Notes: a model not told the origin generated them from the sequence alone. Positions 10,723-16,593 are shown, counted from the stretch's first letter. The stretch is 64,000 nucleotides of DNA from Pyrinomonadaceae bacterium (GCA_013811945.1 JACCUI010000284.1:10104-74103), one strand, 5' to 3'. Numbers and translations are program-made.

Positions 10723-12405
10723 CTATTTCTCTGCCGCCGGCACTTGTTGGGCCGGCGTCGTGGTCCGACCAGGAGTCGCCGGAGACTGGGTTGGCGTTGC
10801 TGGCGCCGCCGCTGGGAGCACGCTGTAGTCCGTCAAGCCAGCCGCGATTTTGGCTTCCCAGTCCGTTTGCTTGCGCTGGTTCAAACTATTTGTCGTTTCA
10901 TGGTCGTAAACGACTTGAACCTGGTCCTTGAAAGTTCTCCAATCTTCGCCCAGCTTAATCAAACCCGCTCTGGGCTGTTGGAATAGCTGATGAACGAGGT
11001 CCATTGCCGCGTCGTGCCCACACCCACTCGCGTTAAACGTGAACGTCGCGGCCTTCGCCTTTACGGCATCCCGTGCCTTGCCAGCCATTACTCTGGTGAT
11101 CTCGAAGTGGCCCTGCTCATGTTTCAGAAGCAAAGCCTTCTTCGTGCTCTCGTTAGCAATGCATGTTCTAAGAAAGCTGGTCTTGCAATCCGACTTTCTG
11201 TTTGCGGCGGCGGTCCCGAGTCTGGGCCTGACGTTTGGATTCTGGTCGAAATCACGCTCACATTGAGTGGCCGCGTTGTTGCAGTAGGCGTTGTTCTTGA
11301 GGCGATCCTGCAACCAGGATTTATCCGTCTCCATGTAAGGCTGAAACTCTGTGTCGAACTGAGCGGGGTTAACCGAACCCTTACCGTCGAACTTCGTGTC
11401 AAACTTTCTCCGCCCAGTCGGATTGAGCAGCTTGCACCTTTTCTTAGTATCTTTTGTGCCAGAAGTAAGAACAGGGGTAGGAATCTTGAAGCTGCTCCAC
11501 AGTCCCGCCGACTCCGTAGCGGCCGCCGGGGCTTGCGCCACGAAATCCCCCCATACCAGTTGGTGGTAAGGGAGTTCAGCCCTTTGGATCAGTCTTGAAA
11601 CACTACCGGCACGCTGCTGGGCAACGTGGACCAGTTCGTGCGCTACCAGACCAAACCCCGTAGCGGTATGGGGGCTGAACCGTCCGGCGTTGAAAAAGAT
11701 GTCGGAACCAAGTGTGAATGCTGCCGCCTGAAGACTCTGTGACGTTGATGCGGCTGACCGGTCTGTATGAATTCGAACGTTACTCAAGTCGTGATCAAAG
11801 CTCGGCTCAAAAAAATCACGCAGAGGTGCCGGCAAAGGGCGTCCACTTCCAACCGCGCTTCTAATTCTCGCTTCGGTTTGAGGACTTACCTCTGAGATTT
11901 GAGCGCCGGAAGTGGATCTCGCTTCGGCGCCTTTCCGATTGGCCTGGTGTTCACCGTTTTGAGGTTTAGCGGAAACCGTGGGGCCGGCGGAAACTTTGCT
12001 GGTCACTTTTCCAAGATTGCTCGCGGGCTGTCTTACTACCTCGTGGGCCACTCTGTCAGCCTCCAGTTCGGAATGATCGTCGGGTTGACTGATCAGCAAT
12101 CGAGGCGGAGCGGCTGCAAGCCTGTTCACATTCTCAGTTTGAGGAGGATCAAGTTGACCTCGGTTTGAACCCTTAACTTTGCTGCAAGCGTCACACCCAC
12201 CACCAGTTGAGTGCGGATCACACGCACATCCTCGAAGTGAGGTGGACTGGACCGCTTCAAATGCAGGTCTATAGCTCATCTCGTCTTGCTTCTTGATCAA
12301 TGTGTGATTGCCCGGGCAGCCGTGCGGCCGCAACTTCACTCCGAGCGATACCTGGTTTCCCTTCGCCCTCCGGGGTTTGCTGACTTGTTGGCTTTTCACG
12401 CCCAT
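10723..12405 (-). CDS. DUF4157 (eCIS-associated HExxH) protein 3 with a C-terminal second HExxH module (DUF922-like)
   Basis: 560 aa. Leader MGVKSQQVSK...PGNHTLIKK. Cys motif CACDPHSTGGGCDAC. DUF4157 signature SELEADRVA...LSNVRIHTD...LVAHELVHVAQQ. C-terminal module LVWGDFVAQAP...SWLQ...LLLKHEQGHFEI. Confidence 0.8.
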   Translation of the reverse strand: MGVKSQQVSKPRRAKGNQVSLGVKLRPHGCPGNHTLIKKQDEMSYRPAFEAVQSTSLRGCACDPHSTGGGCDACSKVKGSNRGQLDPPQTENVNRLAAAPPRLLISQPDDHSELEADRVAHEVVRQPASNLGKVTSKVSAGPTVSAKPQNGEHQANRKGAEARSTSGAQISEVSPQTEARIRSAVGSGRPLPAPLRDFFEPSFDHDLSNVRIHTDRSAASTSQSLQAAAFTLGSDIFFNAGRFSPHTATGFGLVAHELVHVAQQRAGSVSRLIQRAELPYHQLVWGDFVAQAPAAATESAGLWSSFKIPTPVLTSGTKDTKKRCKLLNPTGRRKFDTKFDGKGSVNPAQFDTEFQPYMETDKSWLQDRLKNNAYCNNAATQCERDFDQNPNVRPRLGTAAANRKSDCKTSFLRTCIANESTKKALLLKHEQGHFEITRVMAGKARDAVKAKAATFTFNASGCGHDAAMDLVHQLFQQPRAGLIKLGEDWRTFKDQVQVVYDHETTNSLNQRKQTDWEAKIAAGLTDYSVLPAAAPATPTQSPATPGRTTTPAQQVPAAEK

Positions 12406-12423
12406 TACTCTTTGAACTGCTGA

Positions 12424-14307: not shown

Positions 14308-14334
14308 TAGGCTTTCCAGATTTTCAAACTGCAC

Positions 14335-16593
14335 TTAGAAACGTTTACTGAAGAACACGTCAACAAGATGCGTACGCTGCTTATCGCCATCCAGCCGTTT
14401 CCATTCTTCCCACCCGATACCAAGGCGAAGCGAGCGGTTTTTTCCAAAGGCCCATCCTGCTTCCAGGCCCCCGCCCACTTCAATTGACGTAAACCACTCG
14501 CTACGGATTCCTCCCTTACCGGTCAAAAACAATGACATTTCCTTAAAGGGATCAAAACTTGCGCCTACTCCAGCGGAGATGGCGCCTGTTCCAATTCCCG
14601 TATAAACAAAAGGCTGCAACTTGCCATCCAGCAAGGTGGGAAGAAGCTTTCGGAATTCAAGTTCAAGCCCTGGCTTCTTCTCGTCGCCGAGTTCTAGAGT
14701 GAGTTTTGGAAGCAGCTCAAAACGAGGAGAAGGAGCTTGGCTTTCTTTAGGGGCATCATGAGTCGGGATCACCTTGGGGTCATATATCAGTGTAGTTTTC
14801 TCGGTTTCATCCAGCGGCGTATCCGGATCATCCTTCGTCTCCGGCCGCTTCCGGTTCTCCGCTGCGTACTGGAACAGCTTTCTTGCGTAGTCGACCCAAC
14901 CGTCCGCGTCACTGAATGCTCCCATCACCGTATTTCGCGTTTCAAACTTCACGAGGCCAGTGTCCTTTTCGCCCTTTTTGGCCTCCACGTCGTATTTGCC
15001 CATGGCGGCACTGACACCTGAGCCACTCTGCACTGACAGCAAATCCTTACCGCTGTGAATACCTGCCAGCCATTTGTACACGGTGGGACCAGCGTGATGT
15101 TGCTTCATTCCATACCCCTTAATGAAGAATGGGGTTTTTCGATCCAGCCCGAGCTGCTTCAGGATCAGATCTTTTTGTACTATCTTTTTGAAAAGGCTTT
15201 GTTGCTTTTCGGTCATCAGCAGAGTCTGATAGATCGAAGAGAAGTCGGTTCGGTTCATCAGGATAAACGCCTGCTTCGCAGCCTTGCCCTTAACATCGGC
15301 GAATGCTCCAGTGCTGGCGCTTGCCGTCGCGCCCTGCCCTCGCATGATGTAATTGACGATTATTTGTAGAAAGCTGCGCAAATTGACTAATTCCGTTGCG
15401 GGAATGCCTCCACTGTTAGCGGCATCCAGGATCGTCTGAGCGCTGGCGATGACGGGTTCTCTGTATGCCGGAAACTCGTGTTGTTTGAGCAGAGACTCAT
15501 ACTGTTCCAGCAAAATGCCTTCTGAGGATTGAATGCCTGCATTCCATTTGTCATCGACTATTTCGACCTCCAGCTTCTCTTCTTTCCCAAGAATTTTTTC
15601 CTTCCCTCCTTCCATTCCTGGTTTTTTGTCCCAGAAGCCTTTTTTCAGTTCCTGAGGTGAGCCTTTTCTCAGATCATCCACGGGAAACGGGAACGCCTTC
15701 CGTCCTCCCTCGGCAGCCGGTGCCCCATTCATCTTCGTGGTCATTTCACGTGCTTCTTTTAACTGCTTTTCCAGTGCAGACCATTTACGAAACCAGTCCG
15801 TTTCAAATTCGAGCACCCCGTTGGTCTCGGACTCCAATCTCACACCCGTAGCACCTTTGACCAGGAAATCACTGGGACCATACTTCCGATCCAGCAGGGT
15901 CGGAGGGTTTACGCCATCATTTCGCCAAATCTTGTTAAATGTCTGGATCTCAAACTTCATCTCCCGTTGAATCGTCGCTGGCCTGCTATGCGAGGTTGGC
16001 GGAGCAGCAGGAAAGGTGCTGGGACCTTCGTGATTGACGGCGTTTTGATTGAAGGAACGACCCACCGCTTTTGCCCCCATTAGGTCGGCTTCTCGCTCGA
16101 GGCTTCTATCATCATTAATCGACTTCCCCTTTGCCTGAATCGTGGGGGTCACACGCCCCTGCATCTGCTGCACTGCATGCCAGCCCTCGTGAGGTAAATG
16201 CCGTTCCTGACCCGGAGCGAGGTGGATTTCCTGTCCTTCGGTATAGGCCCACGCATTCAGTTGGTCTGGTTTTGAGGAGTTTCTATGAACGCGTATACCC
16301 GAGAGATCCCTTCCCGAGAGCGTTTCCAGGCCGGCCTTCAACTGACGCGGCATCCCGGTACGGTTTTCGACTTCACGCCGATCATCCTGGAGTGGCTGAT
16401 CCATTACATTGCGTTGCAGCGTCGCACCCTTCTCTTTCCTTTGCAGTCGAGGCTGAGTTTCGTCGGTCTCCCGGCCCTTTCTCACTAACGTGTGATTGCC
16501 TGCAAAACCACGCACCGGGGTTAACGCACCCGAAGATATGGGCGAGCGCATCCCGATGGCCGGCTTTGTGACGTGTTGGCTTTTCACGCTCAT
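14335..16593 (-). CDS. DUF4157 protein 1 with a ~400-aa unknown central domain and a C-terminal beta-rich domain
   Basis: 752 aa. ATGA overlap with the upstream 78-aa gene. Leader MSVKSQHVTK...FAGNHTLVRK. DUF4157 core LSGIRVHRNS...HLPHEGWHAVQQ...LEREADLMG. The C-terminus ends in VDVFFSKRF. Confidence 0.8.
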   Translation of the reverse strand: MSVKSQHVTKPAIGMRSPISSGALTPVRGFAGNHTLVRKGRETDETQPRLQRKEKGATLQRNVMDQPLQDDRREVENRTGMPRQLKAGLETLSGRDLSGIRVHRNSSKPDQLNAWAYTEGQEIHLAPGQERHLPHEGWHAVQQMQGRVTPTIQAKGKSINDDRSLEREADLMGAKAVGRSFNQNAVNHEGPSTFPAAPPTSHSRPATIQREMKFEIQTFNKIWRNDGVNPPTLLDRKYGPSDFLVKGATGVRLESETNGVLEFETDWFRKWSALEKQLKEAREMTTKMNGAPAAEGGRKAFPFPVDDLRKGSPQELKKGFWDKKPGMEGGKEKILGKEEKLEVEIVDDKWNAGIQSSEGILLEQYESLLKQHEFPAYREPVIASAQTILDAANSGGIPATELVNLRSFLQIIVNYIMRGQGATASASTGAFADVKGKAAKQAFILMNRTDFSSIYQTLLMTEKQQSLFKKIVQKDLILKQLGLDRKTPFFIKGYGMKQHHAGPTVYKWLAGIHSGKDLLSVQSGSGVSAAMGKYDVEAKKGEKDTGLVKFETRNTVMGAFSDADGWVDYARKLFQYAAENRKRPETKDDPDTPLDETEKTTLIYDPKVIPTHDAPKESQAPSPRFELLPKLTLELGDEKKPGLELEFRKLLPTLLDGKLQPFVYTGIGTGAISAGVGASFDPFKEMSLFLTGKGGIRSEWFTSIEVGGGLEAGWAFGKNRSLRLGIGWEEWKRLDGDKQRTHLVDVFFSKRF

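Follow-up and report, generated by a model that had tools for sequence, protein, structure and literature searches.

Three tandem cargo genes of an extracellular contractile injection system (eCIS) encoded in the metagenome-assembled genome (MAG) of a soil acidobacterium (Pyrinomonadaceae bacterium, phylum Acidobacteriota, class Blastocatellia; GCA_013811945.1, JACCUI010000284.1:10104-74103) specify proteins which share a 39-amino acid (aa) N-terminal leader. The best-supported reading is that this leader is a packaging or loading signal, a proposition to which we assign a probability of roughly 0.6. It would then be a lineage-specific, sequence-defined form of the N-terminal loading signal known from other eCIS, and is best explained as the Blastocatellia-specific version of a short N-terminal cargo tag belonging to a single eCIS lineage that extends over multiple phyla. 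The analyzed stretch of 64,000 nucleotides (nt) is referred to as the window, and positions are counted from its first letter.

A conserved leader in three cargo proteins

The three proteins, denoted cargo A, B, and C, and their leaders map to the window as follows:

14335-16593, minus strand: cargo A, 752 aa, with the leader, a weak eCIS_core match (aa 81-146, motif HEGWH), and a long C-terminal region
12424-14307, minus strand: cargo B, 627 aa from the ATG, with the leader, a CxC..CxxC stretch, an EQEADRVA helix, and eCIS_core (aa 156-233)
10723-12405, minus strand: cargo C, 560 aa, with the leader, a Cys-rich stretch, eCIS_core (aa 190-267), and a second HExxH motif in the C-terminal part
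16477-16593, minus strand: leader of cargo A, aa 1-39, MSVKSQHVTKPAIGMRSPISSGALTPVRGFAGNHTLVRK (hidden Markov model (HMM) score 60.7 bits), with block 1 at 16564-16593 and block 2 at 16477-16512
14191-14307, minus strand: leader of cargo B, aa 1-39 (55.6 bits); its start coincides with that of GenBank model MBA3357663.1
12289-12405, minus strand: leader of cargo C, aa 1-39, with the variants G2, H28, C30, and P31 (57.5 bits)

All three proteins belong to the DUF4157 family (PF13699, now eCIS_core), scoring 35.2 (A), 104.1 (B), and 99.2 (C) bits against a cut-off of 22, and carry the motifs HEGWH, HELTH, and HELVH, respectively, each continued by xxQQ. The leaders align without gaps over 39 aa and contain two conserved blocks, as the initial annotation had read directly from the window, with M1, V3, K4, S5, Q6, V8, K10, G29, G32, N33, H34, T35, and K39 invariant in all three. 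The DNA strings which that annotation quoted at the gene starts and in block 2 are likewise present: codons 3-6 (GTG AAA AGC CAA) and 32-34 (GGC AAT CAC) are the same in the three genes. When a degenerate two-block DNA pattern was applied to the window, A and B matched, against 0.00 matches expected in shuffled sequences. No other site in the window combines VKSQ with an in-frame GNHT, and the leader HMM found no match in six-frame translations of the window beyond the three leader sites. The GenBank model of cargo A (MBA3357664.1, 738 aa) corresponds to residues 15-752, starting from M15, and thereby leaves out 16552-16593 and with it block 1; we consider the 752-aa form to be real because its start codon lies in an ATGA overlap with the preceding gene and the leader is conserved.

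Leader genes occupy one slot in homologous operons

The three 42-aa N-termini were turned into a profile, which was run against 1.84 billion protein cluster representatives (E <= 1e-3). Of the 19 proteins matched, 17 carry the motif at residues 1 to ~40 with the same spacing, and the other two matches are internal repeats of unrelated proteins. The 17 N-terminal sequences align to the window leaders without an indel, giving the consensus MSVKSQQVTKxAxAKRxxAAPxVxNRVRGFAGNHT. In an alignment of 22 close-clade sequences, columns carry 3.3 bits of information for residues 1-10, 2.3 for 11-27, 3.7 for 28-35, and 1.9 for 36-39, but only ~1.1 bits past residue 40; to judge from this conservation profile, the leader is a 39-aa module with a sharp boundary. 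Word-indexed homology searches with the short leader returned nothing or one 65-aa fragment, an effect of the index rather than absence of relatives, since the exhaustive profile search found the family.

The close clade comprises 12 distinct loci (the window, L001, L004-L007, L009, L010, and L028-L031; L001 equals L003, and L002 is a copy of the window), which were obtained through a metagenome pattern scan (L001-L003), exact look-ups (L004-L008, L028-L031), and an ATPase-anchored scan of GTDB (L009, L010). All 18 leader genes in these loci occupy one and the same eCIS cargo slot and, where the contig reaches, the gene order is Pvc16_N, ATPase, 78-87-aa protein, leader-bearing cargo protein(s), CIS_tube-like protein, ~91-aa protein, gpD, and spike. 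A slot holds from one to three or more leader genes, with three in tandem in L029, and may include small genes without the leader, namely those for a 128-aa protein (L007), a HEAT-repeat protein (L009), and a 146-aa protein (L029), which look like accessory or immunity genes. On both strands of the close-clade loci, the leader HMM detected no match besides the known leaders. The initial annotation had proposed looking for the motif at the N-termini of eCIS-linked proteins elsewhere, and it indeed occurs almost solely at the very start of proteins whose genes fill the cargo slot of homologous operons in other genomes.

Two genes precede the cargo genes in the window:

16816-18930, minus strand: Pvc15-type AAA+ ATPase with a winged-helix N domain and AAA (Pfam AAA 101.5 bits, WHD 47.1 bits)
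16590-16826, minus strand: conserved 78-aa protein, directly upstream of the first leader-bearing cargo gene

The ATPase, described in the initial annotation as encoded just upstream of the cargo, is encoded upstream but two genes away, with the 78-aa gene in between. In loci with the same leader, the ATPase is 74-75% identical to that of the window. The strict two-block DNA pattern was found neither in IMG/VR nor in 185,579 GTDB species representatives, and its three occurrences in JGI metagenomes amount to one locus seen twice and one copy of the window. Given this near absence from DNA collections, the exact close-clade form must be rare; relaxed forms of the leader in GTDB genomes were reached solely via the ATPase.

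A fixed-length core persists in distant relatives

The ATPase-anchored scan of GTDB yielded 17 loci with ATPases 42-74% identical to that of the window and, in most cases, the same synteny; the hosts are MAGs of Acidobacteriota, Ignavibacteriota, Binatia, Dehalococcoidia, Chitinophagales, Alphaproteobacteria, and 'Delta'-proteobacteria. At ATPase identities as low as 42-51% (seen in Ignavibacteriota, Binatia, and Alpha- and Betaproteobacteria), the leader has lost block 1 (VKSQ) and kept a core, M1…R28-x-G-x-[GA]32-N33-[HR]34, at a constant distance from the start codon. The first cargo protein of the distant loci still contains G-[AG]-[GA]-N-[HR], with an ATG located exactly 32 codons before the N. 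This ATG is the first start codon of the open reading frame in L009, L010, L012, L014a, L017, and L020, the first ATG in L011, L013, and L022, and one of two or three ATGs in L014b and L024. A MAFFT alignment of 32 N-termini, some of which are 11-22% identical overall, is ungapped, with M1 and N33 invariant and R28 and G32 more than 90% conserved. L018 and L025, which lie outside the model, both display M1…R28-P-G-A-[GR]-N33-H34. The type of leader tracks the relatedness of the ATPase across loci, which speaks of co-inheritance, not of interaction. L010, L017, L020, and L023 have a single very long DUF4157 protein (2,132-2,340 aa), similar to the Tme-like effectors of Streptomyces, in the cargo slot, compared with one to three shorter proteins in the window clade; the N33 core is present in the long proteins of L010, L017, and L020, but not in that of L023.

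An operon of the same layout in Nitrosomonas sp. Nm166 (L026, 10001-14054) encodes a cargo protein with …LQRKCACG32-N33-H34-T35 and a neighbor with …CSCG32-T33-H34-T35. The GNHT position in L026 sits inside CxC…CxxC, a motif encountered very often in the DUF4157 family. In a broad sample of this family (the best 120 of 3,757 matches), GN[QHR] is ~10 times denser in the first 80 residues than elsewhere, with LLQRKCACGNHT (N mostly at 30-36) and LQRxxGNQAV (N at 44-50) as recurrent contexts, and the paralogous DUF4157 cargo proteins of an eCIS of a different type (L027, 10001-11170 and 19076-20695) have equal-length leaders ending in LQ(R/Q)TAGNQAV, with the N at position 47. Thus, block 2 represents the local form of an old N-terminal 'GN' motif of DUF4157-type cargo, and equal-length shared leaders may be general among such proteins. 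Block 1 is specific to the Blastocatellia-type clade.

The leader is combined with diverse payloads

Four carriers of the leader lack PF13699: P0018 (1018 aa, LysM only), beside which L004 shows no other cargo, P0025 (435 aa), which is alone as cargo in L005, and proteins of 391 aa in L007 and 387 aa in L009. The payload domains that pass Pfam cut-offs are Annexin, PG_binding_1, and LysM, and sub-threshold matches include OmpA, DUF6782, a Tse2-like ADP-ribosyltransferase, and the Aspzincin-like region of cargo B. The distance from the leader to the HExxH motif of DUF4157 ranges from 135 to 256 residues. Because four carriers lack DUF4157 and the payload domains differ, the leader is an independent module, and the link to DUF4157 proteins drawn in the initial annotation was too narrow. 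An intramolecular role together with DUF4157, for example as a pro-peptide, is unlikely, the leader being kept in proteins and in whole loci without this domain. What stands of the loading tag as first proposed is an N-terminal, domain-independent module specific to the eCIS cargo slot, from which we infer packaging itself.

Charge and predicted disorder

The net charge of the window leaders lies between +6 and +9, and their hydrophobic runs span at most three residues, in agreement with the original view that they are not Sec or Tat signals. For the leaders overall, the net charge is +3 to +10, the mean Kyte-Doolittle hydropathy -0.04 to -0.82, and the longest hydrophobic run two to three residues, with no hydrophobic core. 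A Sec signal contains a hydrophobic h-region of about 10-15 residues, to which Tat signals add an RR motif; with such a region absent, both types of signal peptide are ruled out. In an AlphaFold2 (AF2) model of cargo B residues 1-240, based on a 70-row alignment, residues 1-68 score 40-56 in pLDDT (predicted local distance difference test) and lack secondary structure, the EQEADRVA segment is confidently modeled as a helix (100-114), and the DUF4157 core exceeds a pLDDT of 90. The leader is accordingly predicted to be disordered, although the low pLDDT is weak evidence of this because few of the alignment rows contain the leader.

A small protein encoded at the cargo junction

A homologue of the 78-aa protein is encoded directly upstream of the first cargo gene in every leader-bearing related locus with upstream DNA, and L020, L022, L024, and L025, none of which was used in building its HMM, carry it as well. 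In the close clade, the TGA stop codon of the small gene overlaps the cargo ATG (ATGA; 16590-16593 in the window). Apart from designed helical repeats among the PDB sequences, searches of Pfam, NCBIfam, PDB sequences, and Foldseek/PDB yielded nothing that matches the protein; a single-sequence AF2 model (pLDDT 76) consists of two helices. Translationally coupled to the first cargo gene, the 78-aa protein is a candidate reader of the leader as well placed as the ATPase, and may act as an adaptor or chaperone for the tag, a role which is a guess.

Nucleotide conservation and proposed addition of cargo genes

The ATGA overlap dictates that codon 2 begins with A, and hence that residue 2 is Ser, Asn, Thr, or Lys; within the window trio, Gly2 occurs solely in C because the gene for C lacks the overlap. 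Before some second or third cargo genes, ~27-30 nt form a decayed copy of the small gene's 3' end (…ATAGC…CAATTCTGGAAAAACT…, read as …SILEKL), either non-coding or interrupted by a stop codon. Such remnants are located as follows:

14308-14334, minus strand: window, A/B spacer before cargo B, ...AATCTGGAAAG... (FENLESL against SILEKLT), from an ATG-anchored comparison of 10-12 cargo starts
6886-6915: L001b
10306-10335: L007c
1549-1578: L030

At identical residues, paralogues within a genome use the same codon in 64% of cases in the leader versus 37% in the DUF4157 core; the p-values of codon-identity comparisons are overstated because these comparisons are pairwise and non-independent, the direction being consistent. 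At conserved residues, synonymous codons differ between loci (AAA/AAG, AGC/AGT, CAA/CAG, AAT/AAC), and the simplest reading would be that selection acts on the leader peptide. Leaders of same-genome paralogues are 43-52% identical at the protein level versus up to 62% across genomes; being no closer within than across genomes, they could not owe their similarity to concerted evolution alone. RNAalifold predicted no base pairs in 12 start regions, and the three initiation regions of the window give weaker folds than their shuffled counterparts (z +0.7 to +1.7); a structured mRNA element is rejected on these grounds. Hence, of the explanations for DNA identity that the initial annotation left alongside packaging, gene conversion or an initiation effect retains partial support in the lower synonymous divergence, the ATGA overlap, and the junction remnant, whereas a structured mRNA element is not supported. 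The simplest reading of these patterns is that the leader and the upstream junction stay with the locus and that payloads, including DUF4157 cores, come from a more diverged pool; they further suggest that new cargo genes are added as cassettes starting ~30 nt upstream of the ATG.

Comparison with known systems

According to published accounts (PMC11297309, PMC11495950), payloads of the Photorhabdus virulence cassettes (PVC) and the antifeeding prophage (Afp) carry a disordered N-terminal signal of 50-70 aa, minimally about 20 aa, and their loading needs Pvc15. A role of disordered N-terminal regions in cargo loading has been shown experimentally for PVC and AlgoCIS (PMC11495950; bioRxiv 10.64898/2026.05.27.728243). 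Like the PVC/Afp signals (Jiang 2022, Kreitz 2023, both cited in PMC11297309; Evans & Waterfield 2024, PMC11495950), the leader is N-terminal, hydrophilic, basic, predicted to be disordered, and found on diverse payloads; unlike these signals, it is shorter and sequence-defined, and the cargo genes of the window are located mid-operon. In position, charge and disorder, and modularity, the leader has the properties of eCIS loading signals, known here from sequence alone.

A closer parallel in gene arrangement is offered by Cgo1 and Cgo2 of AlgoCIS, paralogous DUF4157 proteins encoded within the cluster, with a shared disordered N-terminal region and differing C-terminal domains (Xu et al. 2022, PMC8894135; bioRxiv 10.64898/2026.05.27.728243). 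Their loading into the tube lumen requires both this N-terminal region and Alg15, an AAA+ protein, DUF4157 being dispensable (bioRxiv 10.64898/2026.05.27.728243), and N-terminal regions of this type are reported to be similar within but not between systems (PMC8894135; bioRxiv 10.64898/2026.05.27.728243). The window proteins, too, are in-cluster DUF4157 paralogues with similar N-terminal regions and varied C-termini. Compared by description, they differ in having a defined 39-aa ungapped motif over many loci, the R28/G32/N33 core of which is fixed across phyla.

Two DUF4157 proteins of Streptomyces, Tme and Sle2, were found to co-purify with the tip, spike, spike-hub, and tube-initiator proteins or to bind them (PMC11126660, PMC13277306), and 'tme-like' clusters with long DUF4157 proteins and conserved synteny occur in many phyla (PMC11126660, PMC13277306). 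These studies concern binding of spike proteins and feature no N-terminal motif (PMC11126660, PMC13277306). As in the case of Tme and Sle2, a DUF4157-bearing protein of the window is encoded between the ATPase and the tube-initiator and spike genes. The hallmarks of Tme are transmembrane and tape-measure-like regions and an EndA-like nuclease domain. Unlike proteins of this type, which reach about 2,000 aa or more, the cargo proteins of the window are 560-752 aa long and by this length do not belong among the Tme-like proteins.

Outside of eCIS, short conserved terminal peptides on unrelated cargo encoded beside container genes direct this cargo into encapsulins; in most cases they sit at the C-terminus and have the shell protein itself as binding partner, and the machinery is unrelated to eCIS. 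The analogy with the leader is confined to a short conserved terminal peptide common to unrelated cargo. Polymorphic toxin loci (Rhs, contact-dependent inhibition (CDI)) combine a constant N-terminal trafficking part with variable toxins, and their tandem or orphan cassettes retain upstream constant fragments. Here, unlike in Rhs/CDI, the constant part spans ~39 codons plus ~30 nt upstream, and whole genes, not C-terminal tips, are added.

Functional interpretation and alternatives

By analogy with PVC payloads and AlgoCIS Cgo1/Cgo2, the tag would mark a protein for loading into the particle and would have the Pvc15-type ATPase as its reader, perhaps in concert with the co-translated 78-aa protein. 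It may also provide a constant 5' end during duplication or exchange of cargo cassettes, given that it stays with the locus while payloads differ; duplication or exchange around the tag is, we propose, why the leader shows extra identity at the nucleotide level. A bolder joint claim, which is tentative and has the odds leaning against it as a whole, is that a multi-phylum eCIS lineage employs a fixed-length 'ruler' tag as a true loading code, together with a three-part reader and recruitment at the junction. The ruler would consist of Met1, 26 basic or polar residues, and R28-x-G-x-[GA]32-N33-[HR]34, and the lineage would be present in Acidobacteriota, Ignavibacteriota, Binatia, and Alpha-, Beta-, and 'Delta'-proteobacteria. 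The dedicated module would be formed by the AAA+ ATPase, its previously unrecognized ~78-aa partner, and the tag, and new cargo would be recruited via recombination at the small-gene/tag junction.

Several considerations weigh against a loading signal. Loading, its dependence on the ATPase, and the sufficiency of the tag are all steps that we infer. The signals of PVC and Afp are reported to be tolerant to changes and without a conserved sequence (PMC11297309, PMC11495950), such that a sharply conserved motif of fixed length is atypical for an eCIS signal and may hint at another partner or role. Considering the spike and tube-initiator binding in Streptomyces, the receptor may be something other than the ATPase. 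Codon identity is higher in the leader than in the DUF4157 core between genomes as well (48% versus 31%), so some nucleotide constraint is possible. In some distant loci, the N33 spacing depends on which of two or three ATGs is taken as the start, and it does not hold in L015 (+2), the L007 protein of 391 aa (+1), L021, and L023. Finally, the low pLDDT of the leader could partly stem from the few leader-bearing rows of the alignment.

Some of these points would be accounted for if the tag were a loading or docking peptide whose receptor, instead of the ATPase, is the spike/tube-initiator complex or the tube lumen, possibly via the 78-aa protein; the fixed length of 33 residues would then reflect a defined docking geometry. 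We regard this as unlikely. The cargo slot does lie directly before tube-initiator-like, gpD, and spike genes, the Streptomyces proteins have the partners described above (PMC11126660, PMC13277306), the Tme-like proteins of ~2,100-2,340 aa in L010, L017, and L020 carry the same N33 core, and fixed length with sharp residue conservation suits structural docking more than a generic unfoldase signal. However, N-terminal loading in AlgoCIS needs the ATPase Alg15 (bioRxiv 10.64898/2026.05.27.728243), and in the Streptomyces proteins any portion of the chain may be the one that binds the spike. Both models could hold at once if cargo passes from the ATPase to the baseplate.

It is considerably less probable that the tag acts after delivery or before activation, either as a basic membrane-interacting or cell-penetrating segment or as a pro-peptide removed by a protease. 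The strongly basic and predicted disordered character of the tag would fit such a role, and most carriers contain a putative HExxH metallopeptidase-like domain as a possible processor; yet the tag is kept without DUF4157, including in loci whose single cargo has none (L004, L005), generic basic peptides do not require an invariant G-N-[HR] at a set distance from Met1, and we know of no cleavage motif for the tag. Least probable of all, and in our opinion very unlikely, is that conservation operates mainly on nucleotides, the leader with ~30 nt of upstream sequence being a recombination or gene-conversion handle and initiation region with little function for the peptide. The codon identities in leader and core (64/37% within and 48/31% between genomes), the small-gene remnants before later cargo genes (window, L001, L007, L030), the A imposed on codon 2, and the weak folding of initiation regions would all be expected of such an element. 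Against it, R28, G32, and N33 are maintained through synonymous and non-synonymous change across phyla at 11-22% overall identity, block 2 lies ~85-105 nt into the gene, beyond the reach of an initiation effect, RNAalifold predicts no pairs, and leaders of one genome are no more alike than those of different genomes. A loading signal thus remains the reading we favor.

Other features of the operon

The cargo genes are part of a single operon, which runs from the sheath to the large baseplate genes. In the order of transcription, it encodes the sheath, a gp19-type tube protein, a T4_baseplate-like protein, a 256-aa protein, Pvc16_N, and the ATPase, followed by the 78-aa protein, cargo A/B/C, the CIS_tube-like protein, a 93-aa protein, gpD, spike, gp25, and two large baseplate proteins. 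The remaining features are:

2353-24764, minus strand: whole eCIS operon
22341-24764, minus strand: sheath
18927-20222, minus strand: Pvc16_N (cap/terminator-type; Pfam PF14065, 84.6 bits), at the upstream end of the conserved block
9994-10716, minus strand: CIS_tube-like (tube-initiator-type) protein, weak Pfam PF19266 match, which closes the cargo slot

A homologue of the CIS_tube-like protein ('MANGYSQSPKLLKGA...') is encoded 3' of the cargo genes in related loci that reach that far. Regarding the cargo proteins themselves, the segment that links the leader to DUF4157 in B and in C includes a CxC…CxxC stretch and an E(Q/L)EADRVA helix, and the C-terminal part of both proteins holds a second HExxH; in B, an Aspzincin_M35-like HExxH region with a sub-threshold Pfam score lies beyond eCIS_core. 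The long C-terminal region of A has no Pfam match. In the last ~170 aa of A (14338-14850) and B (12427-12948), which terminate in F or FE, Gly and aromatic residues abound and alternating patterns occur, which brings outer-membrane beta-barrels to mind; such a barrel at these C-termini is supported neither by Pfam nor by a BLAST comparison of the two. Just upstream of the sheath gene is a gene for a sigma-54 enhancer-binding protein (25493-26878, minus strand), and a weak -24/-12-like site (TGGTATTAGCGTTGCA; 25205-25220, minus strand) is located ~440 nt upstream of the sheath start. Matches in a scan for such sites are no commoner than expected by chance, and a sigma-54 promoter at this position was rejected.

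Implications

Particles of eCIS are being engineered as protein-delivery devices, and cargo loading is the least understood step. Loading signals are described in the literature as disordered and system-specific, with no conserved sequence, from which a tag whose invariant residues keep a set distance to the N-terminus would differ. If the leader is a loading signal, it would provide a sequence rule for recognizing cargo in a large uncultured eCIS lineage, including cargo that lacks DUF4157 or has a misannotated start, and would pinpoint the exact residues and spacing to mutate, and the conserved small protein would be a possible missing adaptor. The analysis also suggests a route by which new cargo genes join the operon. 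Should the 'ruler' claim prove true, the tag would be the first eCIS loading signal recognizable from sequence alone and rationally transplantable.

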